DNA of 64,000 nt from an uncultured Actinomycetota bacterium (lineage in GTDB: Bacteria; Actinomycetota; Actinomycetes; JACCUZ01): positions 292,238 through 356,237 of the forward strand of contig CAVSCX010000003.1 in assembly GCA_963726615.1 (NCBI GenBank), given 5' to 3'. The translations under genes were made by a program, and so were the position numbers. Of the stretch, positions 40,769 to 64,000 are shown in pieces (the first letter of the stretch is position 1; every line of letters begins with the position of its first letter). The notes under the pieces were generated by a model, which was given only the letters and a program-made list of their open reading frames with translations, searched no databases and had not been told where the DNA came from.

Positions 40769-42153
40769 CAGCGGGCTGCGGCCGTCCTCGGCGCCTCGAG
40801 CCCGGCCTCCGCCGCCGCCGCGTAGTCCTCGTTCACGTGCACGACAGTCCGCCGGTCGACGTCGAGCATCGACGCGGCGATCGCGGCCCGGTACCCGGAG
40901 CCGCAGTACACCCACACCTCGCCGTCCGGCACCTCGGCCAACCGGTCCGGCAGCTCGTGGATGGGGATGTGCATCGACGCTTCGACATGTCCCGTGGCGC
41001 GCTCGTCGTGCCGTCGCGCGTCGAGCACGTGCACCTCGGCACTGTCGTCCTCCCCGAGACGGGCGGCGAGCCCGGCGAAGTCGGAGACGCGGTAGGTGCG
41101 CAGCGGACTTCCGGCGGCCATGGCCTCGACGTCGCCTACCGCGGCGCCCGCCAGCTCGTCGATACCGATGCGCACGAGCTCGCGCCGCGCATCGGCGACC
41201 TGCTCGGACGTCTCGCCGATGAGAGTGAGCGGGGCGCCCCACGGCACCAGCCATCCCACGTAGGTGACGAAGTTCGTACCCAGCTCGAAGTTCCGGCTGC
41301 CCGTCAGGTGACCGGCCGCGAACGCTGTCCGTTCGCGCAGGTCCACGACCCACTCTCCGGCCTCGATCCGTGAGCGCAGCTCGGCCGGGTCGACCGGCCG
41401 GGGGGCGCCGAGGTCGACCGGCTCCGGGCCGCGGTTGTTGGCCGGCCCCATGTGCGCGTAGTAGGCGGGGTAGGCGTCCAGCCCGGCGAGCAGCGTCTCG
41501 ACGTAGGTCTGCTCGTCCTGGGTGAGGGCCGGGTTCGTGGCACGCTGCTCCGCCACGGTGGAGTCGTCGCCTGAGGTCGGGGTGGCCGAGCAGAAGCTGC
41601 CGAACCCGTGGGTGGGCAGCACCTGGGCGTCGGACGGCAGGTCCGCAGCCAGCCGGCGCACCGACCGGTACTGCGCGCGGGTCAGGTCCACGGTGTGCTC
41701 CGGGCCGACGAGGTCCGTCCGGCCGGTGGAGCCGAACAGCATGGACCCGCCGGTCAGGACTGCCTGGACCGGGCCGTCCAGCACCGCGACGGCGTAGGCG
41801 ACGTGGTGGTGGGTGTGGCCCGGGGTGTGCAGCACCGACACCCGTAGGTCCCCCACCTCGAACGTGTCACCGTCGGCCACCGGCGTGTGCGGGAACTGTG
41901 CACCCATGTCGTGCGGCACGACGTAGGAAGCCCCGGCGACAGTCGCCAGCTCGAGGCCGCCGGTGACGTAGTCGTTGTGCCCGTGGGTCTCCGCGACGGC
42001 TGCGATGCGGACTCCCAGCGTCTGCGCCAGGTCCAGCACTCGGTCGATGTCGCGCTGCGGGTCGACGACAAGGGCGACGGTGCCGTCGGTGAGCAGGTAG
42101 CTGCGGTCACCGAGCGACGGTGTCTCGATCACGTGGTGGGTGAGTCCGGACAT
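40768..42153 (-). CDS. Persulfide dioxygenase (ETHE1-like MBL fold) fused to C-terminal rhodanese domain (CstB-like)
   Basis: Start at MSGLTHHV. MBL metal motif AETHGHNDYVTG plus HTPGHT. C-terminal rhodanese with active-site CGSGYRA. Confidence 0.8.
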   Translation of the reverse strand: MSGLTHHVIETPSLGDRSYLLTDGTVALVVDPQRDIDRVLDLAQTLGVRIAAVAETHGHNDYVTGGLELATVAGASYVVPHDMGAQFPHTPVADGDTFEVGDLRVSVLHTPGHTHHHVAYAVAVLDGPVQAVLTGGSMLFGSTGRTDLVGPEHTVDLTRAQYRSVRRLAADLPSDAQVLPTHGFGSFCSATPTSGDDSTVAEQRATNPALTQDEQTYVETLLAGLDAYPAYYAHMGPANNRGPEPVDLGAPRPVDPAELRSRIEAGEWVVDLRERTAFAAGHLTGSRNFELGTNFVTYVGWLVPWGAPLTLIGETSEQVADARRELVRIGIDELAGAAVGDVEAMAAGSPLRTYRVSDFAGLAARLGEDDSAEVHVLDARRHDERATGHVEASMHIPIHELPDRLAEVPDGEVWVYCGSGYRAAIAASMLDVDRRTVVHVNEDYAAAAEAGLEAPRTAAAR

Positions 42154-42169
42154 CTCGCTGCCTCCCGTC

Positions 42170-42517
42170 TCAGGCCGGCTCCGAGCCGGCGACAACCGGG
42201 TTGCCCGCCTTCATCCAGCCGCCGGTGCCCCCGGCGACCGAACGCGCGTCCGCACCGGCCTGGCCGAGCAGCCCGGCGCCGGCCTTGCTCCGGTTCCCCG
42301 AGGCGCAGACGACGAACACCGGGGCTCCGGCTGCCTCCCGTACCAGGTCGTCGGTGTGACGTCCGAGCTGGTCGAGCGGGATGTTGCGCGCGCCAGGGAC
42401 GTGGCCGCCGACGTACTCGTCCGGCTCGCGAACGTCCACGGTCAGCGCGCCCGCTGCATGGGCGGTGGCGAAGTCGGCGAGCTCGGTCTCACGGACGGTG
42501 TTGCCTTGGCTGGACAT
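42170..42517 (-). CDS. Single-domain rhodanese-like sulfurtransferase
   Basis: 115 aa. GAGGAG RBS. Active-site loop CASGNRS. Confidence 0.75.
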   Translation of the reverse strand: MSSQGNTVRETELADFATAHAAGALTVDVREPDEYVGGHVPGARNIPLDQLGRHTDDLVREAAGAPVFVVCASGNRSKAGAGLLGQAGADARSVAGGTGGWMKAGNPVVAGSEPA

Positions 42518-42529
42518 CAACACTCCTCT

Positions 42530-42545
42530 ATACGGGTGGGGGTAT
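42530..42545. promoter_or_regulatory. Operator-like box 1: ATACGGGTGGGGGTAT (ATAC-N8-GTAT), in the 5'UTR of the rhodanese operon
   Basis: Exact reverse complement of box 2. Sits immediately upstream of the rhodanese RBS. Confidence 0.5.
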
Positions 42546-42655
42546 CGTTCGAACCTATCAAGGCGCCGGGACCGGCCCTCATTCCGGTCTGCCCCGGTCA
42601 ACCTCCGACATACCCCGGCGGGGGCGTCTCGCACTCCTGCTTGCGGTATGGCAAC

Positions 42656-42671
42656 ATACCCCCACCCGTAT
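42656..42671. promoter_or_regulatory. Operator-like box 2: ATACCCCCACCCGTAT, 24 nt upstream of the MMPL GTG start
   Basis: Exact reverse complement of box 1, 110 nt away. Same ATAC-N8-GTAT architecture. Confidence 0.5.
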
Positions 42672-42694
42672 CCGAGAAACCGCGAGGACCCTCC

Positions 42695-44869
42695 GTGACG
42701 ACTGCCCCGACCGCCCGCGACACGAGCGTCAGCGGCCCCAAGAACACCAGGGACGACGGTAATGCCCGGCTGGGCCCGCTCGGCCGCCTCGGTGTGTGGA
42801 CCGCCACCCGTGCCCGGACTGTCTTCGTCGTGTGGCTGCTGATCGTCGTCTCCCTGGGGGCCTTCGCGCCGAAGGTGGAGCACGCGCTCGCCGGCGCCGG
42901 CTGGGAGGCGTCGGGGTCGGAGTCGGTCGCCGTGCGGGACATCGCGCACCGCGAGTTCGGCGGGATGTCGAGCGCCGCTCTCCAGGTCGTCGTGCACACC
43001 GACTCGGGCACCGTGACCACCGGTCCCGGCCGGGTCGCGGTCGACCGGGCCGTGGCACTGCTGCGCGCCGACGATCGGGTCTCCACCGTCCAAGCGCCGC
43101 GGCCCGGCACGTCGCTGTCCCCCGACGGACGCACTGCACTGATCCGCGGCGGCGCAGCCAGTGCCAACACCAACGAGATGGTCCGCGCGGCGGACGACCT
43201 CAAGGGACCGGTGCGCGACCTGAGCGGTGACGACGTGACTGTCGCGCTCACGGGGTCGTCCGCGCTGTGGAGCGACTTCAACGCCGCCAACCTCGACGCG
43301 ATGATGAAGAGCGAGCTCATCAGCTGGCCGGTCACACTGGTCATCCTCGTGCTCGCGTTCGGGTCCCTGGTGGCCGCCGGCCTGCCGCTGATGCTGACGA
43401 TCACCGGGCTGGTCGCCGCAGCCGGATCCCTCTACCTCGGCACCCTGCTCGGTGACATCAGCATCTGGGCGATGAACTTCGCGCTGATGTTCGCGCTCGC
43501 GCTGGGCATCGACTACGCACTGTTCGTGGTCGTCCGGTACCGAGCCGCGCGGTTCGGAGACCACCAGAACACCCGGTCAGCCGTTGGCGAGACCATGGAC
43601 ACGGCCGGCAAGGCGGTCCTCTTCTCCGGCGTCACCGTCCTGGTCTCCCTGTCGGCAGTGATGCTGGTGCCGTCGCCGGCCTTCCGCTCGATGGCCCTCG
43701 GCATCATGCTCGCCGTCGTCTTCGTCCTGGCCGCGACGCTGACCCTGCTCCCGGCCGTCCTCGGGAAGCTCGGTCACCGGGTGGACGCCCTCGCACTGCC
43801 CTGGGTGCACGCCGGTGAGCACCGGTCGCTCCGCTTCGAGCGGTGGGCCCAGCGGTTGTGGCGTCGGCCGGTCGGCTACGGACTGCTCGCCCTCGTGGCC
43901 CTCGCTGTCCTCGCAGCCCCGGTGCTGGGACTACGGACCGGGATGCCCTCGATCAAGGTCGTTCCGGAGACCGACTCCAGCCGGGTCGGCTACGCCGCCG
44001 TCCAGGACGCGTTCGGCCCGGGCGCACCAGGCACGCTGCAGGTCGTCGTCCCCCAGGACCGGGCCGGCCGGGCCGCGGCCGTGCTCGCCGACGATCCGGG
44101 AGTGGTCATGGTCATGCCGCCCGCTGCCGGCATTGGGAAGAAGGTCCTGCTGGCCGCCGTACCCGACGACGGCCCGTCCACCCGCGCCCTGGGCACGACG
44201 ATCGACCGGCTCCGTGCCGACCTGCCGTCGGAGGCCCTCGTCGGAGGCCCCTCGGCCGAGAACCACGACCTCGAGCGGCTGCTGGCCGACAAGACACCAC
44301 TGGTCATCGGCGTCGTGCTGGCGCTCGGCTTCCTGCTGCTGCTGGTCGCCCTGCAGGCGCCGCTGGTGGCGGCTCTGGGCACCCTGACGAACCTGCTCGC
44401 CACCGGTGCCGCCTTCGGCGTGGCGAAGCTGATCTTCCAGGACGGGCACGGATCGGGCCTGCTCGGGTTCGAGCCGCAGGGCTTCCTCGACGCCTGGGCT
44501 CCGGTGTTCTTCTTCGCCATGATCTTCGCCATCGGCATGGACTACACCGTCTTCCTGCTGGCGTCCGCGAAGGAGCACTGGGAGCGGTCGAACGACGCAC
44601 GCGAGGCGATGGTGGGCGGGCTGGCGCACTCCGGCCGGGTCATCTTCGCCGCTGCCGGCGTGATGGTCGCTGTCTTCTTCACCTTCGCCCTGTCCGGCCC
44701 GCTCCCCCCGAAGGAGATGGGTGTCGTCCTCGGCGTCGCCGTGCTCCTCGACGCAGCGCTGGTCCGTCTCCTGCTGCTGCCGGTGCTCCTGCGACTCAGC
44801 GGCCGAGCCGCGTGGGCTTCGCCCTCCTGGTTGCGCCGGCTGCTGCCGCGGGTGCGGTTCAGCCACTGA
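42695..44869 (+). CDS. MMPL-family (RND superfamily) membrane transporter
   Basis: 724 aa from GTG preceded by GAGGA. Two 6-TM bundles each followed by an extracytoplasmic domain. Confidence 0.8.
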   Translation: MTTAPTARDTSVSGPKNTRDDGNARLGPLGRLGVWTATRARTVFVVWLLIVVSLGAFAPKVEHALAGAGWEASGSESVAVRDIAHREFGGMSSAALQVVVHTDSGTVTTGPGRVAVDRAVALLRADDRVSTVQAPRPGTSLSPDGRTALIRGGAASANTNEMVRAADDLKGPVRDLSGDDVTVALTGSSALWSDFNAANLDAMMKSELISWPVTLVILVLAFGSLVAAGLPLMLTITGLVAAAGSLYLGTLLGDISIWAMNFALMFALALGIDYALFVVVRYRAARFGDHQNTRSAVGETMDTAGKAVLFSGVTVLVSLSAVMLVPSPAFRSMALGIMLAVVFVLAATLTLLPAVLGKLGHRVDALALPWVHAGEHRSLRFERWAQRLWRRPVGYGLLALVALAVLAAPVLGLRTGMPSIKVVPETDSSRVGYAAVQDAFGPGAPGTLQVVVPQDRAGRAAAVLADDPGVVMVMPPAAGIGKKVLLAAVPDDGPSTRALGTTIDRLRADLPSEALVGGPSAENHDLERLLADKTPLVIGVVLALGFLLLLVALQAPLVAALGTLTNLLATGAAFGVAKLIFQDGHGSGLLGFEPQGFLDAWAPVFFFAMIFAIGMDYTVFLLASAKEHWERSNDAREAMVGGLAHSGRVIFAAAGVMVAVFFTFALSGPLPPKEMGVVLGVAVLLDAALVRLLLLPVLLRLSGRAAWASPSWLRRLLPRVRFSH

Positions 44870-44876
44870 AAGGCGC

Positions 44877-44892
44877 ATACCCTGGCGTGTAT
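44877..44892. promoter_or_regulatory. Operator-like box 3: ATACCCTGGCGTGTAT, 19 nt upstream of the CstR-like gene
   Basis: Same ATAC-N8-GTAT frame as boxes 1 and 2, with a less G/C-run core. Confidence 0.4.
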
Positions 44893-44910
44893 CGAGAGAG
44901 TGGAGTCGTC

Positions 44911-45171
44911 GTGCAGGTGGACCTCGAGACCGTCGGACCGGTCGTGAACCGGCTCAAGCGCGCCCAGGGGCAGCTGGCCGGGGTGCTGCGGATGCTGGAG
45001 GAGGAGCGGGACTGCGCGGACGTCGTGACCCAGCTCGCCGCGGTGTCCCGTGCGCTGGACAAGGCAGGGTTCGCCCTCATCGCGGCCGGCCTCGAGCAAT
45101 GTCTCCGTGCCGGCGACGACGGTGCGCTGGACCGCGAGAAGCTCGAGAAGGTCTTCATGTCGCTGGCCTGA
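44911..45171 (+). CDS. CsoR/RcnR-family (DUF156) repressor, CstR-like (two Cys, no His)
   Basis: 86 aa from GTG. VNRLKRAQGQLAGVLRMLEEERDCADVVTQLAAVSRALDKAGFALIAAGLEQC. Cys residues 29 apart, as in S. aureus CstR. No His at the Cu-ligand position. Confidence 0.7.
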   Translation: MQVDLETVGPVVNRLKRAQGQLAGVLRMLEEERDCADVVTQLAAVSRALDKAGFALIAAGLEQCLRAGDDGALDREKLEKVFMSLA

Positions 45172-48903: not shown

Positions 48904-50250
48904 TCATCGCACACCGCGCACCGGCAGGATGCACGCCGCCGCGACCAGAGCACACAGGCCGGCCACGGCGTACAAGGCCGGGTAGCTGCCGAGCGCGAGT
49001 ATGCCCGGTGCCAGGGCCGGAGCGAGCGAGTACGGCAGGGCTCCGGCGATGTTGAACACGCCGAGGTCCTTCGCTGCGGTGGCGGGGTCGGGCAGCACGT
49101 CGACGACCAGCGCGAGGTCGATGGCGACGTACAGGCCGAGCCCGACGCCGCTGATGGCCAGCGCGAGGTAGAACCCGGCAAGCTGCGAGCTTGATGCGAG
49201 CACGAGCATGGCGACGCCGAACACGGCTGCGGCCACCATCACGAACACCTTGCGACGGCCGGTGCGGTCGGACAGCGGACCCCCGACCAGCGAGGCGGTG
49301 ATGACCAGGGCGGACTGCAGCGCGGTGGCGAGGAACACCTGGTCGGGCACGTCGTGGTCCGGGCTGCCGAGATGGTCGAGGAGGTAGAACGCCTCGTAGG
49401 TGGTGAGGCAGGCATAGGCGAACACGAACAGGAACCGGCTGGCGAACGCCCACAGGAAGTCGCCGCTGGCATGCGGCCGCACCCAGAAGGTGCGCGCCAG
49501 CTCTCCCCACGACCAGGGCGCCCGACCGGCCGGGTCGAGTCGCCGGTCGTCGAGGCGCCACATGAACCACCCGATGGCGACTCCGCCGACGAGGCACGGC
49601 GCGAGGAACATGGCCAGCGCGTGCGGGCTGAACACCTTCACGAGCAGGGTCCCGAGCACCGAAGCGACCGGAAGGCACACGCCGAGCACCCCCGACACCA
49701 TCCCTCGCTGCCGGGAGGGGACCTGGTCGGGCAGCACCGCCAGCAGGGCCGCGAGCACCGCGTTCAGGAACAGCTGCGCCAGGCACCAGCCGAGCACGAC
49801 GACCGCGACGTTGGGGGCCAGGGCGACGATGACCGTACCGACGGTGCCGCCGGCCAGGCCGACGAGCACCCACGGCCGGCGCATCCCCAGCCGTGAGGTG
49901 GTCCGGTCCGAGAGCCGGCCGAACACCGGGTTCCCGACCACCGCGACCAGCGACCCCAGGCCGGCGACAACGGCGAGGCGGTTCGGCGCCTTGTCGCCGA
50001 CCAGCGCGTCGAGCTTGAGCGCCAGGGTCACGACCAGCGGCGCGACGAGCATGACGATGACCCCGGTGTAGGCGGCCGCGAACTCCACGACGAACCGCCA
50101 CCCGACCGCGACCACGTCCGGCCGGCCGTCGCCACCGCCGACCGACAGCGGCGCGAACGGCGGTCCCGGCAGCGCGGACGTGGGTGACGTGTCGGACATC
50201 GCGGCCCCCGCGGGAGACTGGGCGATGACAGACGCCTCGCTCGTGATCAT
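48904..50250 (-). CDS. MFS transporter
   Basis: Start ATG with GGAG 8 nt upstream. 12 TM. GRLSDRTTSRLGMRRP loop 2-3 motif. C-terminal portion of the giant track ORF 48904..52590. Confidence 0.75.
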   Translation of the reverse strand: MITSEASVIAQSPAGAAMSDTSPTSALPGPPFAPLSVGGGDGRPDVVAVGWRFVVEFAAAYTGVIVMLVAPLVVTLALKLDALVGDKAPNRLAVVAGLGSLVAVVGNPVFGRLSDRTTSRLGMRRPWVLVGLAGGTVGTVIVALAPNVAVVVLGWCLAQLFLNAVLAALLAVLPDQVPSRQRGMVSGVLGVCLPVASVLGTLLVKVFSPHALAMFLAPCLVGGVAIGWFMWRLDDRRLDPAGRAPWSWGELARTFWVRPHASGDFLWAFASRFLFVFAYACLTTYEAFYLLDHLGSPDHDVPDQVFLATALQSALVITASLVGGPLSDRTGRRKVFVMVAAAVFGVAMLVLASSSQLAGFYLALAISGVGLGLYVAIDLALVVDVLPDPATAAKDLGVFNIAGALPYSLAPALAPGILALGSYPALYAVAGLCALVAAACILPVRGVR

Positions 50251-50322
50251 GAGACTGCTCCTGCAACCTGACTGCCGCAAGAGCCGTCCCGCGCCTCGGC
50301 GCGCGTTCGTATCTCGCGCCGC

Positions 50323-53191
50323 GTGAGACGGCCTTGCGGTGTCGCGGGTCTGCGCGACGATGGCCGGGTGGGAGGGACGGGGTCGCGCGCGCCGAGGGGT
50401 GCACCGCTCGTCCAGACCAAGCTGCACGTGCCCAGCGGCCGCGCGGCCGCGGTGCCCCGGCCACGGCTGTCCGACCGGCTCGCGCGAGGGCTGACGGGGA
50501 AGCTCACGCTCGTGTCGGCTCCGGCGGGGTTCGGCAAGACGACGGTGCTGGCGCAATGGCTCGCAGAGTCCCGTCAGGCACCTGGTGGTCCGGCGGTCGC
50601 GTGGGTGTCGCTGGACGAGCACGACAGCGAGCCGGGCCGGTTCTGGTCGTACGTCGTTGCTGCTCTGGCCGGCATCAGCGACGCCCTGCACGCCGACTCG
50701 TTGCCGCTGCTGCAGGGCCCGTCCGCAGCGAGCGAGGCGGCGATGGCCTCGCTGCTGAACGCTCTCTGTGAGCTGCCCGTGGACGTCGTGCTGGTCCTGG
50801 ACGACTACCACACCGTGACAGCGCACGAGATCCACGAGGCGGTGGGCTACCTGCTCGACCACCTGCCGTCGCAGGTGCATCTGGTGCTCTCGTCGCGATC
50901 CGACCCGCCGTTGCCGCTGTCCCGGCTGCGGGCCCGCGGCGACCTCGTCGAGGTGCGCTCGGCCGACCTGCGGTTCACCCGGGACGAGGCCGCGCAGTAC
51001 CTGACCGGTTCGATGGGGCTCGACCTGGCGGCAGCCGAGGTCACGCTGCTCGCCGAGCGCACCGAGGGGTGGGCAGCCGCGTTGCAGCTGGCGGGCCTGT
51101 CGCTGCGGGACCGCGACGACACGGCCGCGGCCGTCGCCGGGTTCGCCGGCGACGACCGGTTCATCGTCGACTTCCTCGCCGAGGAGGTCCTGACCCGGCT
51201 GCCGGCCGATGCGCGGGAGTTCCTCCTGCGGACCGCGGTCCTGCGGCGGCTGACCGGGCCGCTGTGCGACGCCGTCACGGGACAGACCGGCGGCGCGGCA
51301 CGGCTCATCGAGCTCGAGCGGGCCAACATGTTCCTGGTCCCGCTCGACGACCGCCGCGAGTGGTACCGGTACCACCACCTGTTCGGTGACGTGTTGCGCG
51401 CGCACCTGTCCGAGCAGCATCCGGACGAGGTCGCGGCGTTGCACCGGCGCGCCAGCGACTGGTGGCACGGCCGGGGTGACGCTGCCGAGGCCGTCGAGCA
51501 CGCGCTCGCCGCCGACGACCCGGAGCGGGCAGCCGAGCTGATGGAGCTCGCCTTCCCGCTGATGGCGCGTGAGCGGCGCGAGGCCGAGCTCGCCCGCTGG
51601 GTCGGCGCCCTCCCGGACGACGTGGTGCGGACCAGGCCGGTGCTGGCCATCGCCTTGGCAGGCGCACTTGCGCAGGTGTCCGACTTCGCGACGGTCGAAC
51701 AACGACTTGACGACGTCGAGCGGCTGTTGGTCGATGCGGACGGCAGGTGGCCAACCGAGCCGCCGGACGGACTGGTCGTCGTCGACACCGACGGCTTCAG
51801 GGCCCTGCCGGCGACGGTGCACATGTACCGGTCGGCGCTGGCGTTGTCCCACGGCGACCCAGCCGGAACGCTCGGGCTCGCCCGGCGCGCGCTGCAGCTG
51901 GCGCCTGAGGGCCACCACCTGCTCCGGGCGGGTGCCCGCGCCCTGGCGGGGCTTGCTGCCTGGGGCATGGGAGATCTGACGGCCGCCCACGCCGCCTACA
52001 CCGACTCGACCATCGACATGCGCCGGGCCGGGCACCTGGCCGACGTCCTGGGGCTGTGCATCACCCTCGGCGAGCTGTGCCTGGCACAGGGGCGCCTGAC
52101 CGACGCCGAACGAACCTTCCGGGACGCCCTCGACCTCACCGCAACCGTTGACGGAGCGCCGCTGCGCGGCACTGCCGACATGCACGTGGGCCTCGCCGGC
52201 GTACTGCTGGAGCGCGGCGACATCGCCGGAGCCGCCGCCGAGCTGGTCACCGCCGACGCCCTCGGTGAGCACAAGGGGCTGCCGCAGAACCCGTACCGCT
52301 CTCGGGTTCTCCACGCATCGCTGGCCGAGACCGCGGGGGACCTCGACGCCGCGCTGAGCCTGCTCGACGAGGCGGAGCGGGTCTACAACGGTGACTACGC
52401 CCCGGACGTGCGGCCGGTGCCCGCGGTGCGAGCCCGGCTGCGGCTGCGCCGCGACGAGCTCGACCTCGCCGAGGCATGGGCCCTTGAGCGACACCTCGCG
52501 CCCGCCGACGAGCTGTCGTACCTGCGTGAGTACGAGCACATCACCCTCGCCCGGCTCCTGCTCGCACGGCACGGGACCGGCGGGGCGCACACGGCAGCCG
52601 GTGGCTCACCGCCGCTGGACGAGGCGACCGGCCTGCTCCAGCGGCTGGCCGCCGCGGCCGAGACCGGCGGCCGCGTGCGACCGCTCATCGAGATCCTCGC
52701 CCTGCTGGCGCAGGCCCACGCGGCGCGTGCCGAGCGCGACACCGCCCTGAGCACCTTGCGGCGGGCGGTCGAGCTCGCTGAGCCCGAAGGACATGTCCAC
52801 GTTTTCACCGGCGAAGGACCCGCGCTGGCCAGCCTGCTGCGGGCTCTCTCACGTGCCGAGCCAGGCTCCGCGTTACCTGCGGCGACTCGCGACAAGCAGC
52901 GAGCCGGAGCCGACCGGAGCGCGCACCGCTCGGCAGACCGCCGCGGAGCACCCGGACCGACCCTGGGGGCACACGCTCGTCGAGCCGCTGTCGGAGCGGG
53001 AGCTGCAGGTTCTGCGGCTGCTGGCCACCGACCTCGACGGCCCGGACATCGCTCGCGAGCTGCACATCTCGCTGAACACGATGCGCACCCACAGCCGCAA
53101 CATCTTCCGCAAGCTGCAGGTCACCAGCCGCCGGGCCGCGGTACGGCGGGCCGTCGAGCTCGACCTGCTGCCCCGCCGACGCCGCACCTGA
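50323..53191 (+). pseudogene. LAL/MalT-type LuxR-family regulator (AAA ATPase + TPR-like + C-terminal LuxR HTH) interrupted by a +1 frameshift near 52.87 kb
   Basis: Walker A LVSAPAGFGKTT. The LuxR HTH ([43 protein letters not shown]) lies in the +2 frame (track ORF 52793..53191). The main frame continues into Pro/Arg-rich nonsense to 53295. Confidence 0.6.
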
Positions 53192-53357
53192 CCCACACCG
53201 GCAAGCGGGCCGCCGCGCGGCGCGCACGTTCACCATGCCGCTCACCAGATGTGGTGACGACGGCTCACCACATCGGTTCCTACCTTCCCGGGTGATGGGG
53301 GACGCGAACCCGCGCCGACCCCCGCCGGAACAGCCCACAACTCCCACGAGGTGTCCC

Positions 53358-53534
53358 ATGTGCCAGCACCAGCCCCAGTGCCCTCCCGCCGACAGCCCGG
53401 CGCGCCAGCTCGCGCGCACCGTCGCGGGCCACCCGGATCAGGGCTGGAGCCTCCTGTGCAACGGGGTCGTCGTGTTCGACGACCTCGGCGAGCTGCTGCC
53501 GCACGGCGCCCCGGGCGTCGCGCAGGCCGCGTGA
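53358..53534 (+). CDS. Small Cys-containing protein resembling the actinobacterial DUF5999 family (58 aa)
   Basis: MCQHQPQCPPADSPARQLARTVAGHPDQGWSLLCNGVVVFDDLGELLPHGAPGVAQAA. Internal start of track ORF 53235..53534. Confidence 0.5.
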   Translation: MCQHQPQCPPADSPARQLARTVAGHPDQGWSLLCNGVVVFDDLGELLPHGAPGVAQAA

Positions 53535-53667
53535 GGGGCGTGACTGCCGTGCGCCAGGTCCAGCAGAGGCGGCTCCCGCGGCCGGCTCGCCCGGCAGATC
53601 TCGACCTCACCACCCCGTCCGGCCGATCCCTGCCCTTCTGACCAGCCGAGAACCGGAAGGACATCCG

Positions 53668-54006
53668 ATGAGAAACGCGAACCCGACGACCCGCCCGCGG
53701 GAGCCGAGGCAGTACGCGATCCGAGTCGACAGCCTCCTCGACCAGAGGTGGGCGACGTGGTTCGACGGGCTCACGCTCACCCACCAGGACGACGGCACCA
53801 CCGTCCTCGACGGAGCCGTGGCCGACCAGGCCGCCCTGCACGGTCTGCTCCAGAAGATCCGCGACCTGGGCCTACCGCTGCTGTCCGTCACGCCCGCAGA
53901 CACCACGACCAGCCCCGCCACCGACGACCCCACCGACCGGCCCGGGGCGGGCGCCTCGACACCCACCACCACGACCACCACCGCGACCACCGGGAGCTCC
54001 TCATGA
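53668..54006 (+). CDS. Hypothetical soluble protein with Thr/Pro-rich tail, translationally coupled to the MMPL gene
   Basis: ATG with GGAAGGA RBS. Stop overlaps MMPL start (ATGA at 54003-54006). Confidence 0.5.
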   Translation: MRNANPTTRPREPRQYAIRVDSLLDQRWATWFDGLTLTHQDDGTTVLDGAVADQAALHGLLQKIRDLGLPLLSVTPADTTTSPATDDPTDRPGAGASTPTTTTTTATTGSSS

Positions 54007-56225
54007 ACCGCTTCATCCGTCGCCTCGGCGACCTCAGCGCCCGCCGCCCCTGGACCATCATCGGAACCTGGGCCGTCGTGGCCGCGCTCGTGGCCGTGCT
54101 CTCCGGCGCACTCGGCGGCGCGTTCGTCGACGACTTCAGCGCACCCGGCAGCGACAGCGCCAACGCCATGGACCTGCTCGACGAGCGGTTCCCCGCCGTG
54201 GCCGGCGGCACCGCCGTCGCCGTGTTCGCCGCCCCCGAAGGTCAGCAGGCAACGGCTTTCCGGCCCGCCGTCGACGCCGCACTGTCCCGGGTCGCGAGGA
54301 TCGACCACGTCGCCGCCGTCGGCGACCCGTTCGCCGCCGGGCACGTCTCCCCCGACGGTCGCGTCGCCTACGCGGACATCGCCCTGGACGTGCCCTCGAC
54401 CCAGTTCGGACGCGACACCGCCGCCACCCTCGTGCACGCCCTCAAGACAGCCCAGGTGAACGGGCTGCGGACCGAGTTCGGCGGCGACGCAGCGTTCCTC
54501 AACGCTGAGGAGGAGAAGTCCGGCTCCGAGGTCTTCGGCATCGTGGCCGCCCTCGTCGTGCTGCTCGTCGCGTTCGGGACCGTCGTGGCCGCACTCGTGC
54601 CCATCGTCCTCGCGCTGGTGGCGGTCGGTGTCGGGCTCGCCGGCATCGTGCTGCTGGCCGGCGGCATCACGGTCTCCACCGCCGCACCGACCATCGGGGC
54701 CATGGTGGGACTGGGCGTCGGCATCGACTACGCGCTGCTGATCGTGTCCCGCTACCGCGAGAACCGTGCCGCCGGGCACGCCAACGGCCCCGCGCTCTCG
54801 GTCGCCATGAGCTCGTCCGGCACCGCCGTGTTCTTCGCCGGTGGCACCGTCGTGCTCGCGATGGGTGCCCTCGTGCTCACCGGCGTCGGCTTCCTCGCCT
54901 CCATCGGCATCAGCACCTCCATCGTCGTCCTGTTCGCGGTCGCCACCGCAGTCACCCTGCTGCCCGCGCTGCTGTCCGTCCTCGGTGACCGCATCGACGC
55001 TGTGCGGGTCGTCGGCCGTCGCCGCGACAGGACCGCCAAGGCGGCGAAGCCGGTGGAGGCGACCGTCTGGTGGCGGCTCGCGCACCGCATCTCCGCCCGG
55101 CCCGTCCCGTACCTCGTCGCCGGTGCTCTGGTCATGCTGACGCTGGCCGTCCCGGCCCTGTCGCTGCAGACCGGCTTCCCCGACGCGAGCGACAACCCGT
55201 CCGGCCACACCGAGCGCAAGGCGTACGAGCTGCTCGCCGACGGCTTCGGTCCCGGCTACAACGCCCCGCTCGTCGTGGTCGCCGACCTGCGCGCCGCCCA
55301 CCTCGACCCGATCGACGTCTCGTCGCTGGCGGCCGACATCGGCGCCGTCCCCGGAGTCGCCCAGGTCGGCGAGCCGCGCACCAACCGGGCCGGCGACACC
55401 GTCGTGCTGCCCACGCTGCCGACCACCGATCCCTCGGACCCGGCGACCGTGCGCACCCTCGAGCGGGTCCGTGCCGTCACCCCGCCCGGGGTCTTCGTGA
55501 CCGGCCCGACCGCGCTGACCCTCGACCTGGACAGGCAGCTGTCCGAGACTCTGCCGCTGTTCATCGGCGCCATCCTCGCGACCTCGATCCTGCTGCTGAT
55601 GATCGTGTTCCGCTCGATCGCCGTGCCGCTCAAGGCCGCCGTGATGAACATGCTGTCCATCGGTGCCGCCTACGGGGTCGTGGTCGCCATCTTCCAGTGG
55701 GGCTGGCTTGCCGGCGCGTTCAACATCCACGACACGTACCGGATCGCCTCGCCCCTGCCGGTCATCTTCTTCGCGGTGCTGTTCGGCCTCTCGATGGACT
55801 ACGAGGTGTTCCTCGTCTCCCGGATCCGCGAGTCCTACGAGGCCACCCGGGACAGCACGGAGGCGGTCGCCCGCGGCCTGGCGTCCACCGGACGGGTCGT
55901 GACGTCCGGCGCGCTGATCATGGTGCTGGTGTTCCTGTCGTTCGTCACGAACCCGTCCCCGTTCGTCAAGATGATCGGCATCGGCCTGGCCACCGCGATA
56001 GCGCTGGACGCCACGGTCGTCCGCATGGTGCTGGTGCCGGCCACGATGGCTCTGATGGGCCGGACCAACTGGTGGCTGCCCGGGTGGCTGGACCGAGTCC
56101 TGCCGCACCTGAGCCTCGAAGGTCCCTCAGCCCAGCCGCCCGCCGCTCCGGTGCCCGTGCCCGCGCAGGGCGACAACCGCGCCCCGGAACCGGACGCCAC
56201 GCCGGTCCCGAGCGCCTCTCGCTGA
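54003..56225 (+). CDS. MMPL-family (RND superfamily) membrane transporter
   Basis: 740 aa from MNRFIRRLGDLSARRPW. Duplicated 6-TM plus periplasmic domain architecture. Confidence 0.8.
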   Translation: MNRFIRRLGDLSARRPWTIIGTWAVVAALVAVLSGALGGAFVDDFSAPGSDSANAMDLLDERFPAVAGGTAVAVFAAPEGQQATAFRPAVDAALSRVARIDHVAAVGDPFAAGHVSPDGRVAYADIALDVPSTQFGRDTAATLVHALKTAQVNGLRTEFGGDAAFLNAEEEKSGSEVFGIVAALVVLLVAFGTVVAALVPIVLALVAVGVGLAGIVLLAGGITVSTAAPTIGAMVGLGVGIDYALLIVSRYRENRAAGHANGPALSVAMSSSGTAVFFAGGTVVLAMGALVLTGVGFLASIGISTSIVVLFAVATAVTLLPALLSVLGDRIDAVRVVGRRRDRTAKAAKPVEATVWWRLAHRISARPVPYLVAGALVMLTLAVPALSLQTGFPDASDNPSGHTERKAYELLADGFGPGYNAPLVVVADLRAAHLDPIDVSSLAADIGAVPGVAQVGEPRTNRAGDTVVLPTLPTTDPSDPATVRTLERVRAVTPPGVFVTGPTALTLDLDRQLSETLPLFIGAILATSILLLMIVFRSIAVPLKAAVMNMLSIGAAYGVVVAIFQWGWLAGAFNIHDTYRIASPLPVIFFAVLFGLSMDYEVFLVSRIRESYEATRDSTEAVARGLASTGRVVTSGALIMVLVFLSFVTNPSPFVKMIGIGLATAIALDATVVRMVLVPATMALMGRTNWWLPGWLDRVLPHLSLEGPSAQPPAAPVPVPAQGDNRAPEPDATPVPSASR

Positions 56226-56286: not shown

Positions 56287-57273
56287 ATGATCCAGGCCCG
56301 CAACATCACCAAGCACTACGGCGACAAGGTGGCCGTCGACGACATCAGCTTCACCGTCGCCGCCGGCAAGGTCACCGGCTTCCTCGGCCCGAACGGCGCC
56401 GGCAAGTCCACCACGATGCGCATGGTCGTCGGGCTGGACCGTCCGACCGCCGGCACCGTGACCGTGAACGGCCGCCGGTACGCCGAGCACGGGTCGCCGC
56501 TGACCGAGGTCGGCGTGCTGCTCGAGGCGAAGGCCGTGCACACCGGTCGGTCCGCGGTGGACCACCTGCGCGCCGTGGCCGCCACCCATGCCTTCGGCCG
56601 CCGCCGCGTCGAGCAGGTCATCGACATGACCGGCCTGCACAGCGTCGCCGGCAAGCGGGTCGGCGGGTTCTCCCTCGGCATGGGCCAGCGCCTCGGCCTG
56701 GCAGTCGCGCTGCTCGGGGACCCGCACACCCTCATCCTCGACGAGCCCGTCAACGGGCTCGACCCGGAAGGGGTTCTGTGGGTGCGGAACCTGCTGCGGC
56801 AGCTCGCCGCGGAAGGGCGCACCGTGTTCCTGTCCTCGCACCTGATGAGCGAGATGGCCCTGACCGCCGACCACATCCTGGTGATCGGACGCGGCCGTAT
56901 CATCGCCGACGCCCCGGTCGCCGACATCATCGCCCGCTCCAGCGGCACCAGCGTGACCGTCCGCACGCCCGAAGCCGGCAGGCTGGCCGATCTGCTGCGC
57001 GGCCCCGACGTCACTGTCATCCCGGCGGACGACGGCCGCCTCGAGGTCCGCGGTACCAGCGCCCAGGTCATCGGCGAGGCGGCAGCCTCCGCCGGCCTGG
57101 TGCTGCACGAGCTGGCCCCGCACCGCGGCAGCCTCGAGGACTCCTACATGTCGCTGACCGCCGACGCCGTCGAGTACCACGCCGCCGGCAGCCCCTCCGC
57201 CGACCCGACCCCCCAGACCGCACCGGTGCCCGCCACCCGGCAGGCGCCGAACTCGAAGGAGACCCACCGATGA
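56287..57273 (+). CDS. ABC transporter ATP-binding protein
   Basis: Walker A GPNGAGKST. Signature FSLGMGQRLG. Walker B LILDEPV. Confidence 0.85.
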   Translation: MIQARNITKHYGDKVAVDDISFTVAAGKVTGFLGPNGAGKSTTMRMVVGLDRPTAGTVTVNGRRYAEHGSPLTEVGVLLEAKAVHTGRSAVDHLRAVAATHAFGRRRVEQVIDMTGLHSVAGKRVGGFSLGMGQRLGLAVALLGDPHTLILDEPVNGLDPEGVLWVRNLLRQLAAEGRTVFLSSHLMSEMALTADHILVIGRGRIIADAPVADIIARSSGTSVTVRTPEAGRLADLLRGPDVTVIPADDGRLEVRGTSAQVIGEAAASAGLVLHELAPHRGSLEDSYMSLTADAVEYHAAGSPSADPTPQTAPVPATRQAPNSKETHR

Positions 57274-58148
57274 GCACTCTTACCGCCCCCGCCCCCGCCC
57301 CCGCAGTCGCCCGCGCCCGCGCGCACCACGTGACGTTCCCCCGGGTGCTGCACGCCGAGTGGATCAAGTTCTGGTCGCTGCGGTCGACAGTGTGGACCGT
57401 CGCCGCGACCGTCGTCGTCATGGCCGCCGTGAGCTGGCTCGCCGCGTTCTTCACCGCCCGCGAGGCCACCAGCCCCAGCACGACGCCGCAGGACGCCGCC
57501 GAGCTGACCCGGCTGCTGCACGACCCGGGCCTCATCCTGACCGGCACCGAGCTCGCCAAGCTCGTCGTTGCCGTCCTCGGTGTACTCATCATCACCGGTG
57601 AGTACTCCACCGGCATGATCCGCTCCACGCTCACCGCGGTCCCACGCCGCCTGCCGGCCCTGTGGGCCAAGGCGCTCGTGCTCTTCGCGGTCACCACCGG
57701 CACCGTGGTGGTCGCCGAGGGCCTCTCCTGGCTGGTGGCCGCCCCGACCCTGCACTCCCACGACGCCGCCCTGGACCTGGGTTCCGCCGAGACGCAGCGC
57801 ATCCTGCTCGGCGGCGTCCTCTACCTGGCCGGCATCGCCCTGCTCGCGTTCGCGGTCGGCGCCATCATCCGGGTGGCTGCGGGCGCCCTCGCGACCGTGC
57901 TCGGCCTGCTGCTCGTCGTCGAGGTCCTGTTCCGCACCTTGCCGGTCGACTTCTTCCGCCAGGTCAGCCCGTTCCTTCCGGCAACCGCCGGGCACCAGCT
58001 GCTCGTCACCCAGTCCAGCATCGAGCAGGCCCGCGCCACCACCAGCGCAACCGTCCTCGAACCCTGGGTGGGGTTCTCCGTGATGGTCGCCTGGGTCGCA
58101 GTCGCACTCGCCGTTGCCGCCGTGCAGCTGCGCCGTCGCGATGCATGA
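57270..58148 (+). CDS. ABC-2 family transporter permease
   Basis: ATG overlapping ATPase stop (ATGA). GAAGGAG RBS. 6 TM. Confidence 0.7.
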   Translation: MSTLTAPAPAPAVARARAHHVTFPRVLHAEWIKFWSLRSTVWTVAATVVVMAAVSWLAAFFTAREATSPSTTPQDAAELTRLLHDPGLILTGTELAKLVVAVLGVLIITGEYSTGMIRSTLTAVPRRLPALWAKALVLFAVTTGTVVVAEGLSWLVAAPTLHSHDAALDLGSAETQRILLGGVLYLAGIALLAFAVGAIIRVAAGALATVLGLLLVVEVLFRTLPVDFFRQVSPFLPATAGHQLLVTQSSIEQARATTSATVLEPWVGFSVMVAWVAVALAVAAVQLRRRDA

Positions 58149-61264: not shown

Positions 61265-61408
61265 TCAGCGCACCATCGTGCCGTTGAGCAGGGTCAGCAT
61301 CCAGCTCGCGCTCGGCTGCTGACCGGTCCTGCGGGTCACCCTGCGGCGGTCGGCACGACCGGCACGACCGGCGAGGATCGAGGTGTGGGTGCTGGATGTG
61401 CGGGCCAT
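61265..61408 (-). CDS. Small basic protein (47 aa)
   Basis: AAGGAG 6 nt upstream of ATG. MARTSSTHTSILAGRAGRADRRRVTRRTGQQPSASWMLTLLNGTMVR. Confidence 0.35.
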   Translation of the reverse strand: MARTSSTHTSILAGRAGRADRRRVTRRTGQQPSASWMLTLLNGTMVR

Positions 61409-61515
61409 GGTCGACTCCTTGGTGGAAGGGACCTCACCATGGGCCGCTTGCCTGTTCGGCGGCTGTCGCGCCGGCGTCCGGAGCCTGTCGCGGCCGCAGC
61501 ACGCTCGCGCTTCTC

Positions 61516-64000
61516 TCAGTCGAGGGTGAGAGCCATCAGCTCGGCCCGTGAGGTGACGCCGACCTTGGTGAAGACGTTGCGCAGGTGGAAGTCGACCGTG
61601 CGGGGGCTGACGAACAGCTGCCCGGCGACGTCTCGGTTCGACATACCCTGCCGGACCAGACGCGCCACGTTCAGCTCCTGCGCGGTCAGGTCGGTCGCGG
61701 TCGACACGTCCCGGCGTCGGGCGGTCTCCCCGGATGCGCGCAGCTCCGCCGCGGCCCGGTCCGCGAACGGTGCCGCGCCGAGCTCCTCGAACGTCGCCAG
61801 CGCGGCCCGCAGGTGCACCCGGGCGTCGACCCGTCGGCGGCCGCGACGGAGGAACTCGCCGTACGCGAGCTCGGTCCGCGCTCTGGCCGGCGGACGCGCG
61901 GACGCGGCGTGCTGGGCGAGAGCCGCCTCGAAATGCCGCTCGGCGTCGTGGGCCTCGGTCGCGAGCAGTGCGGCGCCGTGCTCGGCGACCGCGAGCGCCC
62001 ATGACGCACCGGTCTGCTCGCCGTAGAGCTGCATCTCGTCCGTCCACGCTCGGGCCGCGTCGTGCTGGTCGGCGCGCACCGCCGCCTCGATGCGGTCCAG
62101 AGCCGCGAACCGCCGGACCGGCCCGTCATGGATGTGCTCGAGGAGGTGGAAAGCGGTTGCCGGCGCCCCGCCGGACCGCGCGGCGACCACGGCCTTCGCC
62201 CAGCGGGCGAAGTCGCCCAGCAAGTGCTCGGCGACACCCACCGGGTACGCGGCCGCAACCTGCTCGGCCTCCGCGAGCCGATCCTCGAACTGCTCGTCGC
62301 CGCGGAACGCCGCGACCAGCGCCGCCTCCGCGAGCGGCAGCGCGGCCAGCCCTGGCTGCCCCGAGCCCTGCGCCAGCGGCATCGCCTCCGATGCGCCGGT
62401 GACCAGCGACGTCCACCGGCCGGTGACGAGCTCGATGAGGCCGCGGCGGGTCAGCGCGTACAGCACCATGATGAGCGCCCCGGTCGCGCGCGCCCCCGTC
62501 AGCAGCATGTCGTGGTAGCGGAACGCGAGCTCGTCGTCGCCGACGTGGAACGCGGCGATGCCGAGGTTCGGCAGCAGGTCCTGGTCGTCGCCCTCGACGA
62601 ACTCGGCGCGCTCGAACGCCTCCCGGAGCGCCGGCATGGCCTGCGGCCACTCCGCGCGACGCACATGGTCCAGCCCGACCAGCAGCCAGTAGAACGAGTG
62701 CGCCCGCGCCGGCTCGTCCGGCCCAGGCGGCGGCGCGACCGTCGTCGGGTCGACCTCGAGCTGCGCGTGCGGGTTGAACGACGCGAGCGCCGCGGCGAAC
62801 ATCGCCATCTCCCGGGCGCGTCGCGGGTCGTGCGGCGCGACATCCCGGGCGCCGCGCAGCACCATGGTGATGCCGTCGTGCACCGACCCGGTGTTCCACT
62901 CGATGCGGGCCCGCAGCCGTGCGATGTCCGCACCGAGGAGTGGGTCGCTGACCGCGTCAGCGGCAGCGGCCGCCAGCGCGCGTGCCCGGCCGGGCTGTGC
63001 GGCCAGCCACGCTCCCCACGCCGCGCCGAAAAGGCGCCGCGCCCGTGCCTCCCGGTCCGCCGACAGCTCCGCGGCCCGCTCCCACGCCGCCGATGCGGCC
63101 TCGTGACCGCCACGAGCACTACCGCGCTCCGCCGCGGCGTCCAGCGCCGCGACCACCGTGTCGTCCGGACCTTCCGCGGCGGCCGCGAGATGCCACGCGC
63201 GCCGGTCGTCGTCGCCGGTCGACGCGAGCGCGTCGGCGAGGGCCCTGTGTGCGCGTCGCCGCTCGAGGCTGGTCGCCGCGCCGTACACCGCGGACCGGAC
63301 CAGCGGGTGCCGCATCGCGACAACTCCGTCGCGCACCTGAGCCAGCGCGGACCGCTCGACCTCCTGCTGCGCCTCCTCGTCCGACCCGAGGGCGGCCGCC
63401 GCCGCGCCGACGGCGGCCGCGTGCCCAGAATCGTCGGCGGCCGCGACCAGCAGCCACGTCTGGGACGGCTCCGACAGGCGGCGGAACCGGTCCAGGAACG
63501 CCCGTTCGACTCCCTCGGTCAGCGGCAGTGTCGCCGGAAGCGGCACGACGCCGCGGAGCTGGTCAGGGGACAGCGCGTCGGCCATCTCGACGAGCGCCAG
63601 CGGGTTCCCGCCGGTCTCCTGCGCCAGCCGCTGCGCGACGCCGGCGGCGACGGTCGTGCGCGCGTGAGTGCTGAGCAGCTCGGCCGTACCGGGTTCGTCG
63701 ACCCCGCCGAGAAGCAGCTCCGGCAGGTCGCCGGAGTCGAACCGGCGCACGTCACCGTCGCGCGCGGCGAACAGCAGTGCGACCCGCTCGTCCGAGAGCC
63801 GGCGGGCCACGAACTGCAGCGCGGCCGCGGACGCGTCGTCGAGCCAGTGCGCGTCGTCGACCACCGCCAGCACAGGCGCCTCGTCAGCCGCCTCGCTGAG
63901 CAGGCTCAGCGCGCCCAGGAACACCAGGAATCGGTCACCGTCGCCGTCGGCCTGCCCGAACACCGCCCGCAGCGCCCGGCTCTGCGGCTCCGGCAGCCTC
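61516..64000 (-). CDS. LAL/MalT-type LuxR-family transcriptional regulator (N-terminus beyond window)
   Basis: >815 aa. C-terminal LuxR HTH LTAQELNVARLVRQGMSNRDVAGQLFVSPRTVDFHLRNVFTKVGV. Reading frame continues past 64000. Confidence 0.75.
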   Translation of the reverse strand, partial: RLPEPQSRALRAVFGQADGDGDRFLVFLGALSLLSEAADEAPVLAVVDDAHWLDDASAAALQFVARRLSDERVALLFAARDGDVRRFDSGDLPELLLGGVDEPGTAELLSTHARTTVAAGVAQRLAQETGGNPLALVEMADALSPDQLRGVVPLPATLPLTEGVERAFLDRFRRLSEPSQTWLLVAAADDSGHAAAVGAAAAALGSDEEAQQEVERSALAQVRDGVVAMRHPLVRSAVYGAATSLERRRAHRALADALASTGDDDRRAWHLAAAAEGPDDTVVAALDAAAERGSARGGHEAASAAWERAAELSADREARARRLFGAAWGAWLAAQPGRARALAAAAADAVSDPLLGADIARLRARIEWNTGSVHDGITMVLRGARDVAPHDPRRAREMAMFAAALASFNPHAQLEVDPTTVAPPPGPDEPARAHSFYWLLVGLDHVRRAEWPQAMPALREAFERAEFVEGDDQDLLPNLGIAAFHVGDDELAFRYHDMLLTGARATGALIMVLYALTRRGLIELVTGRWTSLVTGASEAMPLAQGSGQPGLAALPLAEAALVAAFRGDEQFEDRLAEAEQVAAAYPVGVAEHLLGDFARWAKAVVAARSGGAPATAFHLLEHIHDGPVRRFAALDRIEAAVRADQHDAARAWTDEMQLYGEQTGASWALAVAEHGAALLATEAHDAERHFEAALAQHAASARPPARARTELAYGEFLRRGRRRVDARVHLRAALATFEELGAAPFADRAAAELRASGETARRRDVSTATDLTAQELNVARLVRQGMSNRDVAGQLFVSPRTVDFHLRNVFTKVGVTSRAELMALTLD

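Follow-up and report, generated by a model that had tools for sequence, protein, structure and literature searches.

Comparative genomics links a small ferredoxin-like protein encoded 5′ of an MMPL transporter gene to a conserved cassette of MalT-like LuxR-family regulators

Introduction

Small genes that lie directly 5′ of, and are co-transcribed with, genes for MMPL transporters of the resistance-nodulation-division (RND) type are known from the MmpS–MmpL pairs of mycobacteria, in which MmpS (Pfam MmpS) is fixed in the membrane by an N-terminal anchor and carries an extracytoplasmic domain. A comparable arrangement occurs in a 64,000-nucleotide stretch of DNA from an uncultured Actinomycetota bacterium (assembly GCA_963726615.1, contig CAVSCX010000003.1, positions 292,238 to 356,237; hereafter the window), where an open reading frame (ORF) of 112 amino acids runs directly into an MMPL gene. 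A first-pass annotation, made from the sequence alone, had taken its product for a soluble accessory protein made 1:1 with the pump. Our comparative analysis suggests that an operon controlled by the adjacent MalT-like LAL regulator (large ATP-binding regulator of the LuxR family) almost always starts with this small gene, and that the genes behind the small gene are interchangeable.

LAL regulators are abundant in actinomycetes and many of them control antibiotic clusters; to our knowledge, their signals and partners are largely unknown. Promoters targeted by MalT of E. coli carry several short direct and inverted boxes and no −35 element, and the activity of MalT is set by binding proteins. 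In Streptomyces, AfsR, which belongs to the signal transduction ATPases with numerous domains (STAND) and contains NB-ARC and TPR domains, directly targets the gene of the small protein AfsS immediately downstream, through a site that overlaps the promoter. In the TraR–TraM system, a LuxR-family activator induces a protein of ~100 amino acids that binds back on the activator, resulting in a feedback loop.

Results

Regulator, operator and small gene recur together

A one-genome-per-species scan returned 559 relatives of the small protein, and the 80 closest were taken with their flanks (loci L001–L080). Neighbor counts for these loci rest on tblastn and Pfam; ORF calls picked antisense ORFs in the high-GC loci. 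The first-pass annotation had named homologs without MMPL neighbors as a refutation of its proposal. Such homologs are the majority: an MMPL gene lies within 6 kb in only 10 of the 80 loci and directly downstream in 7, while 70 have none within that distance. The constant partner is a LAL gene, found upstream on the same strand in 72 of the 80 loci by tblastn and elsewhere in the locus in 2 more. These upstream regulators are 900–1000 amino acids long and similar across phyla (mean column identity 44%). Pfam TPR_MalT was present in 40 of 40 tested and GerE in 39 of 40, most of them with an AAA_16 NTPase domain. The regulator in the window is likewise a full-length MalT homolog, matching the NCBIfam MalT model at 5.5e-119 over model positions 13–896 of 903, although below the equivalog cut-off.

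In the window, the elements from the regulator to the small ORF are the following.

50428–53191, plus strand: MalT-like LuxR-family (LAL/STAND) regulator, with Pfam TPR_MalT (3e-54) and AAA_22 sharing a frame and GerE (2e-17) shifted to the next
53230–53271, plus strand: predicted four-box operator, with TCACCAT at 53230–53236, TCACCAG at 53242–53248, inverted GTGGTGA at 53251–53257 and TCACCAC at 53265–53271
53281–53286, plus strand: candidate −10 hexamer TACCTT, 9 nt after box 4 and kept as CTcCTAgCTT in the locus consensus
53655–53661, plus strand: Shine-Dalgarno (SD) sequence GGAAGGA of the small ORF, by direct sequence reading
53668–54006, plus strand: small ORF (112 amino acids), with core residues 14–77 at 53707–53898 and Thr/Pro tail residues 78–112 at 53899–54003

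Between regulator and small gene lies a motif with the consensus TCACCAC-N5-TCACCAC-N2-GTGGTGA-N7-TCACCAC, that is, four 7-nt boxes in direct, direct, inverted and direct orientation. The extended locus consensus is aTCACCAC-N5-ATCACCACaTGTGGTGATGCcNgCTCACCACATccgCTcCTAgCTT, with a TAnnnT −10 hexamer 9 nt after box 4. The operator core is found within 400 nt upstream of the small gene in 67 of the 80 loci, with 0–1 mismatch in 48. In the window the operator starts ~40 nt after the LAL stop, and GTGGTGA-N7-TCACCAC (53251–53271) is the only exact copy in the 64 kb. Allowing up to 3 mismatches, the core yields 4 matches in the window where 3.85 are expected by chance, and the other three each carry 3 mismatches. 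A lone TCACCAC half-site was also noted at 53607.

A sigma-70 scan found no consensus promoter and no −35 element, which fits an activator-dependent promoter; its only terminator-like site lies on the opposite strand, inside the small ORF. The arrangement of several short direct and inverted boxes and a missing −35 element resembles that of MalT target promoters, while the box itself differs, being GGA(T/G)GA for MalT and TCACCAC here. In about one third of the loci the ATG of the small gene lies 6–8 nt after the −10 hexamer, implying leaderless mRNA and supporting the promoter assignment; the remaining loci have a 60–70 nt leader with an SD sequence.

Comparison of the last ~60 LAL codons with the boxes 5′ of the small genes in the same 80 loci revealed that box type follows the recognition helix of the adjacent regulator. 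TCACCAC boxes go with SLNTVRTH, TCCCCAC boxes with SLSTVRSH (9 of 9) and TCATCAC boxes with SL[P/A/T]T, so that a single residue at the start of the recognition helix (N, S, or P/A/T) varies in step with bases three and four of each of the four boxes. A cyanobacterial plasmid carries four TCCCCAC boxes. This covariation of box sequence and recognition helix is good evidence, of a comparative kind, for the adjacent LAL as the reader of the predicted boxes. The pairing resembles a simple code of specificity, by which paralogous cassettes might be kept separate.

The same gene order is found on plasmids annotated in RefSeq. A Deinococcus psychrotolerans plasmid carries a LuxR gene, the small gene and then a gene for a 475-amino-acid hypothetical protein; on an Acaryochloris marina plasmid a LuxR gene is followed further on by the small gene and two DUF6326 genes; and on a Candidatus Chlorohelix plasmid the order is LuxR, small gene and an MMPL gene whose product is only 29% identical to that of the window. 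In these comparisons, regulator, operator and small protein are constant across at least five phyla, with MMPL as an output of the cassette and not its defining partner. Two loci bear unexpected phylum labels, L046 (labeled Verrucomicrobiia) and L054 (labeled Gemmatimonadales). In operator region and LAL C-terminus they are near-identical to L038 and L050, which are Chloroflexia loci, and the odd labels are probably binning errors rather than a real distribution.

Outputs behind the operator vary and can lack the small gene

The most common gene directly downstream of the small gene encodes a DUF4386 protein (51 of 80 loci by tblastn). Among 60 same-strand downstream genes classified with Pfam, 43 were DUF4386, 5 MMPL, 3 ABC (ATP-binding cassette) ATPases and 2 F420H2 quinone reductases, accompanied by single cases of DUF6326, DUF2306, DUF420, a Zn-dependent alcohol dehydrogenase (Zn-ADH), a short-chain dehydrogenase/reductase (SDR), GH10 and an alpha-amylase. 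In L042 and L045, thioredoxin-reductase-like flavoproteins (CxxC and GGGAAG motif) follow DUF4386. Like the Zn-ADH, the SDR and the F420H2 quinone reductases among the outputs, these flavoproteins hint at a response of many cassettes to redox-active or xenobiotic stress.

Since the 80 loci had been chosen via the small protein, we also sampled metagenome contigs by the operator pattern alone. This gave 120 contigs, 115 of them with at least 330 nt downstream. The small gene follows the operator in 105 of the 115, in 103 within 450 nt and in the right orientation and in 2 more within 800 nt; 10 have none. In 5 of these 10 the operator stands directly 5′ of an MMPL gene and in 3 directly 5′ of a DUF4386 gene. 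MMPL genes directly behind the operator and without a small gene thus occur in both samples (L011, L018 and L026; operator-selected L091, L110, L126, L184 and L204), and their products are mostly 49–59% identical to the MMPL of the window, that of L126 only 25–34%. Of the contigs, 83 had at least 900 nt downstream, and among these the output was DUF4386 in 58, MMPL in 8 and another gene in 17. The small gene was present behind 63 of 64 LAL-adjacent operators compared with 21 of 27 non-adjacent ones (Fisher p=0.0025). With MMPL and DUF4386 genes also placed directly behind the operator, the outputs can seemingly be expressed from the four-box promoter without the small protein, whereas the LAL-proximal promoter is almost never without it.

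These data bear directly on the view that the small protein is a soluble subunit dedicated to this MMPL transporter and produced with it at 1:1. At the locus itself the signals for such coupling are as first described: the SD sequence GGAAGGA is separated from the ATG at 53668 by a 6-nt spacer, and the stop codon TGA of the small ORF (54004–54006) overlaps the MMPL start codon (54003–54005) as ATGA. The same overlap is found in L001, L009 and L020, with the window included, 8 of 81 loci have an MMPL gene immediately 3′ of the small gene (tblastn), and the Chlorohelix plasmid provides an independent pair. Co-transcription and coupling at this locus, and a recurrent pairing of small gene and MMPL, therefore stand. 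A dedicated partnership does not follow from them, as the 70 relatives without an MMPL gene nearby show, and what stays constant around the small gene is the LAL with its operator. Furthermore, MMPLs account for only 8 of the 83 operator-selected outputs, and in 5 of these cases there is no small gene. The overlap is not kept even among MMPL-linked relatives: in L002, L005 and L028 it is replaced by a 25–30 nt spacer with its own SD sequence. The Thr/Pro tail of the protein is lineage-specific as well. A neighbor-joining tree of the 64-residue core lacked the resolution to tell whether the MMPL-linked genes are a single clade. Taken together, we regard a dedicated MMPL subunit as highly improbable.

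A more general version of this idea holds that the small protein is a cis-acting accessory of whichever output comes next, its domain docking on the cytoplasmic face of that protein to gate it or to deliver a ligand, like a detachable ACT/RAM-type domain. In 16 of 80 loci the small gene shares 4 nt with the gene that follows, whatever that gene is, with ATGA in the window, and most outputs are membrane proteins. In-frame fusions point the same way, joining the domain to DUF4386 (L008, L080, P0181), DUF6326 (P0209) and a Zn-dehydrogenase (P0237), as do relatives with the order domain–four transmembrane (TM) helices–domain (P0170, P0228). However, the outputs are structurally unrelated, including RND-type MMPLs, DUF4386 proteins with about 6 TM helices, ABC ATPases, soluble reductases and glycosidases, and one 64-residue domain is unlikely to fit them all. 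Orthologs of both MMPL and DUF4386 are found behind the same operator without the small gene, fusions make up only ~4% of the top 150 representatives of the family, and the divergence of the small protein follows the LAL more closely than DUF4386 (see Discussion). We consider such a general role unlikely, albeit less so than the dedicated one.

Nine long fusions were apparent among the loci, of which only L008 and L080 are genuine. The alignments of L005, L042, L045, L053, L054 and L078 cross a stop codon, and that of L043 runs out of frame. Divergent relatives with two domain copies include P0170 and P0228, where the copies flank four predicted TM helices, and P0178, where they stand in tandem. 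The two-copy relatives suggest paired action of the domain at the cytoplasmic side of membrane proteins. The fusions likewise favor a cytoplasmic location of the domain, because a Lys/Arg-rich linker follows it before the first TM helix and an even number of TM helices separates the copies in P0170 and P0228.

The small gene encodes a conserved protein with a ferredoxin-like fold

At the G+C content of the window (73.9%), long chance ORFs are common. The small ORF is nevertheless coding, as evidenced by a third-codon-position GC of 0.85–0.92, a gene call for it in the source assembly (ENA ERZ25039476 contig_2619), a ratio of nonsynonymous to synonymous substitution rates (dN/dS) of 0.26–0.43 for the core against relatives, and thousands of homologs. 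A word-indexed homolog search saturated with at least 7,958 matches, all of them 80–125 amino acids long, named "hypothetical" and without a Pfam domain. An exhaustive profile search gave at least 13,059 representatives (50% identity clusters, E≤1e-3), 6,203 of them at E≤1e-10, nearly all stand-alone proteins. One further match to the family within the window (61361–61456) was weak (E=1.1) and judged to be chance, and Rfam gave no match within 53000–54200.

The core consensus reads roughly Y-x-I-R...RWxxWFDG...DGTT...DQAALHGLLxKxRDLGLPLxSV. In an alignment of 20 diverse members 28 positions are invariant, and 13 remain so among 120 sequences. The window ORF matches the family profile at 2e-44 (hmmsearch, alignment A4) and contains every invariant position. 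Tails vary among relatives, and the long Thr-rich tail is confined to the window's own lineage. In the protein of the window, the 35 tail residues include 14 Thr, 5 Ser and 4 Pro.

Such conservation is relevant to the idea that the gene is a leader cistron, whose translation from a leaderless or strong-SD start, with coupling, merely loads ribosomes for the genes downstream while the protein is incidental. The gene is indeed always the first cistron, often leaderless and often overlapping the next gene. Against this, selection acts at the protein level, given the invariant positions and the dN/dS values, the fold is predicted confidently, and in other loci 25–90 nt separate the small gene from the next. 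A leader function alone is hence very hard to credit.

The AlphaFold2 model, built from a 120-sequence alignment, shows a folded core of 64 residues (14–77) with a predicted local distance difference test score (pLDDT) of about 85 (blocks 79–89) between disordered ends (residues 1–13 and 78–112). The order of secondary structure elements is β-α-β-β-α-β, as in ferredoxin-like folds. The model contains no long hydrophobic helix, the N-terminus is polar and the Kyte-Doolittle maximum over a 19-residue window is 0.81, leaving neither a TM segment nor the h-region of a signal peptide. The earlier description of a soluble protein with a globular N-terminal part, a Thr/Pro tail and no TM segment agrees well with these data. 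So does its separation from MmpS: the small protein has no TM anchor and no Pfam MmpS match (E≤1), and, in contrast to MmpS genes, most of its relatives are not found beside MMPL.

The fold class is clear, yet the protein belongs to no named family. Pfam-A and NCBIfam scans at E≤1 returned only a sub-threshold match to the YscD BON-like family, with no match to Pfam ACT, AsnC_trans_reg and similar, and a PADLOC scan found no family. A profile search of the PDB gave no significant match (best E-value 1.3), and Foldseek against the PDB gave none below E=0.017. At or above that value the best structural neighbors were Lrp/AsnC RAM domains, stand-alone RAM proteins, ACT domains and HMA domains. 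The family is very widespread, large and apparently undescribed, without a Pfam-A, NCBIfam or PADLOC model. In the literature that could be searched, nothing relevant was retrieved on the small-protein family, DUF4386, DUF5999, the operator (TCACCAC with LuxR) or LALs with a small protein, and a paper on a Streptomyces coelicolor LAL does not discuss neighboring genes.

The modeled β-α-β-β-α-β fold is the one seen in ACT and RAM domains, and the protein could be a stand-alone ligand-binding protein of this kind, a sponge or sensor that buffers the cassette's signal molecule or presents it to the LAL. ACT domains bind ligands at the β1-α1 segment and the start of α2, and it is in β1-α1 (RWxxWFDG) and at the start of α2 (DQAALHG) that the invariant polar and aromatic residues cluster. 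RAM, ACT and HMA domains being the nearest structures is also in accordance with such a role, and the tandem-domain relative P0178 fits dimeric ACT/RAM behavior. On the other hand, there is no profile match to ACT or RAM families. Compared with the stand-alone RAM/ACT proteins STS042 and TTHA0845, the small protein has no profile similarity, and its RWxxWFDG and DQAALHGLL motifs differ from ACT/RAM signatures. The genomic context suggests no ligand, and sequence conservation this high in cassettes whose outputs differ speaks against diverse ligands. We judge a ligand-binding role to be quite unlikely, somewhat more so than that of a general output accessory.

The operon in the window

In the window, the predicted transcript runs from the operator through DUF5999, the small protein and MMPL to an ABC ATPase and an ABC-2 permease. 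The genes that accompany the small ORF are listed below.

53358–53534, plus strand: DUF5999 gene (58 amino acids; Pfam DUF5999 1.7e-27), called in the source record
54003–56225, plus strand: MMPL-family RND transporter (740 amino acids; Pfam MMPL 2e-84), with NCBIfam actII/MmpL3 subfamily matches
56287–57273, plus strand: ABC transporter ATPase (Pfam ABC_tran 2e-25) of the same operon, called as a gene in the source record
57270–58148, plus strand: ABC-2 type permease (292 amino acids) from frame and GC3 (third-position GC) analysis, with Pfam ABC2_membrane_2 at 1e-5, just under the cut-off, called as a gene in the source record

The MMPL gene has its SD sequence, GGGAG, inside the last codons of the small ORF, and the ATPase and permease genes in turn overlap by ATGA (57270–57273). 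All of the operon is thus translationally coupled, and the junction of small ORF and MMPL is no special case.

The operator lies 417 nt from the small ORF in the window instead of the usual 55–150 nt, because the DUF5999 gene is inserted between them. Among the 80 loci this gene is found at that position only in L001 (93% identical), apart from the window itself. The leader sequences flanking it (53287–53357 and 53535–53667) align with the two ends of the leader in L002, L005 and L028, and since they match the two leader halves of relatives, DUF5999 looks like a recent insertion into the ancestral 5′ leader. In L001, L002 and L005 the 3′ part of the small-ORF leader is kept. A leaderless DUF5999 start at 53292 or 53295 was rejected, as this stretch aligns with the conserved 5′ leader of the relatives, and the start at 53358 with an SD sequence is preferred.

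An extra G at 52872 puts the GerE helix-turn-helix of the window's LAL out of frame, and tblastn finds the LAL gene in two frames. In the ENA record the LAL is intact, with 920 amino acids and WHD_MalT, TPR_MalT and GerE. Over 12.3 kb, 14 mismatches and one 1-nt insertion set the window apart from this source record (L081), and 11 of these 15 differences cluster in 143 nt inside the LAL gene (52834–52976). The LAL of the closest relative, L001, is split into five tblastn pieces. The frameshift may reflect strain heterogeneity, a polishing error or a regulator that is decaying in this lineage. A 990-amino-acid plus-strand ORF of the window is an artefact of the frameshift. Likewise, a 1228-amino-acid minus-strand ORF (48904–52590) is an artefact in which only the C-terminal ~390 residues belong to a major facilitator superfamily (MFS) protein, the rest being an antisense reading of the LAL, as often happens in high-GC DNA; the real MFS gene spans about 48904–50250 and encodes 448 amino acids in the source record.

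Elsewhere in the window, the first MMPL gene (42140–45171 region; 909 amino acids, with 33% identity to the second) stands 18 nt 5′ of a gene for a CsoR-type metal-sensing repressor (Trns_repr_metal 1.6e-22), a different pairing with MMPL that is also unusual. A second large LuxR-family regulator (GerE and AAA_16) occupies 61516–63999 on the minus strand and extends past the window end. It has no TPR_MalT match, and neither a gene of the small family nor a four-box operator was found nearby.

Discussion

The small protein is, in our leading though still tentative interpretation, a cytoplasmic ferredoxin-like member of a LAL regulatory cassette, and probably the feedback partner of the LAL. By analogy with MalT, the LAL would bind the boxes and activate the promoter. 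The small protein might then bind the LAL, at its sensor or nucleotide-binding region, and feed back on its activity. Being made in step with the outputs, it would report the amount of output produced. Such a circuit would resemble that of a TraM-type anti-activator, or that of an AfsS-type effector made on the activator's command.

Placement on the regulatory side is favored because a regulator with a sensor, a DNA site and the small protein are conserved across phyla while the outputs are not, because outputs occur without the small gene, and because the divergence of the small protein tracks the LAL better than DUF4386. Spearman coefficients were 0.70 against the LAL (0.67 with the LAL subsampled to DUF4386 length) and 0.50 against DUF4386, and partial correlations were 0.58 and 0.17, respectively.

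Several observations weigh against a feedback partner. The co-divergence signal is weak, coming from 24 non-independent loci and a 64-residue domain. The 4-nt overlaps point towards the downstream proteins and not the regulator, and the rare genuine fusions to DUF4386, DUF6326 and a Zn-dehydrogenase, along with the domain–four TM–domain proteins, point to the output side as well. A pure feedback role would not require that 21 of the 27 operators away from a LAL still begin with the small gene. Activation as opposed to repression is assumed from MalT, and with boxes 3 and 4 straddling the −35/spacer region the operator would suit a repressor too. Finally, in the window's version of the sequence the LAL is frameshifted.

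The closest described systems compare as follows. The effectors of MalT, namely MalK, MalY and Aes, are an ABC ATPase, a pyridoxal phosphate enzyme and an esterase rather than ferredoxin-fold proteins of 64 residues, and unlike the small gene their genes are not an invariant first target beside malT. AfsR–AfsS shares the STAND regulator with a small-protein gene immediately downstream, which in our case is its predicted target. AfsR, however, carries a SARP (Streptomyces antibiotic regulatory protein) domain and not a LuxR one, and AfsS, with 63 amino acids, repeats and probably no structure, is monocistronic and has no similarity to the fold of the small protein. The TraR–TraM circuit is the same as that proposed for the LAL and the small protein, which in our case is inferred only. 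TraM is all-helical, TraR is a small acyl-homoserine lactone receptor and not a STAND ATPase, and there is no relation in sequence or fold. In the RNPP systems (Rap–Phr, PlcR–PapR and NprR–NprX), as here, a small ORF lies directly behind the gene of a TPR regulator and is proposed to encode a product that acts on it. Their products are exported pro-peptides with signal sequences, in contrast to a folded cytoplasmic domain without a signal peptide.

The interpretation can be taken one step further, to a two-protein cassette in which the small protein is the cognate protein ligand of the LAL sensor or an anti-activator, paralogs are separated by matched changes in box and helix, and any gene placed behind becomes the output. 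We regard this stronger form as possible but doubtful. If true, the cassette would span Actinomycetota, Chloroflexota, Cyanobacteriota, Deinococcota and Bacillota, with >13,000 sequence clusters, and would have gone previously unrecognised.

For the LAL family, the small protein as the predicted, near-constant first target of one large, highly conserved subfamily offers a concrete handle on signals and partners. The sharply defined operator is a second handle, with a specificity that appears to be set by one position of the recognition helix. Small ORFs 5′ of MMPL, DUF4386 and ABC genes in these phyla would be better annotated as parts of a regulator cassette than as transporter subunits. Partner protein, DNA site and predicted specificity switch are all open to standard genetics.

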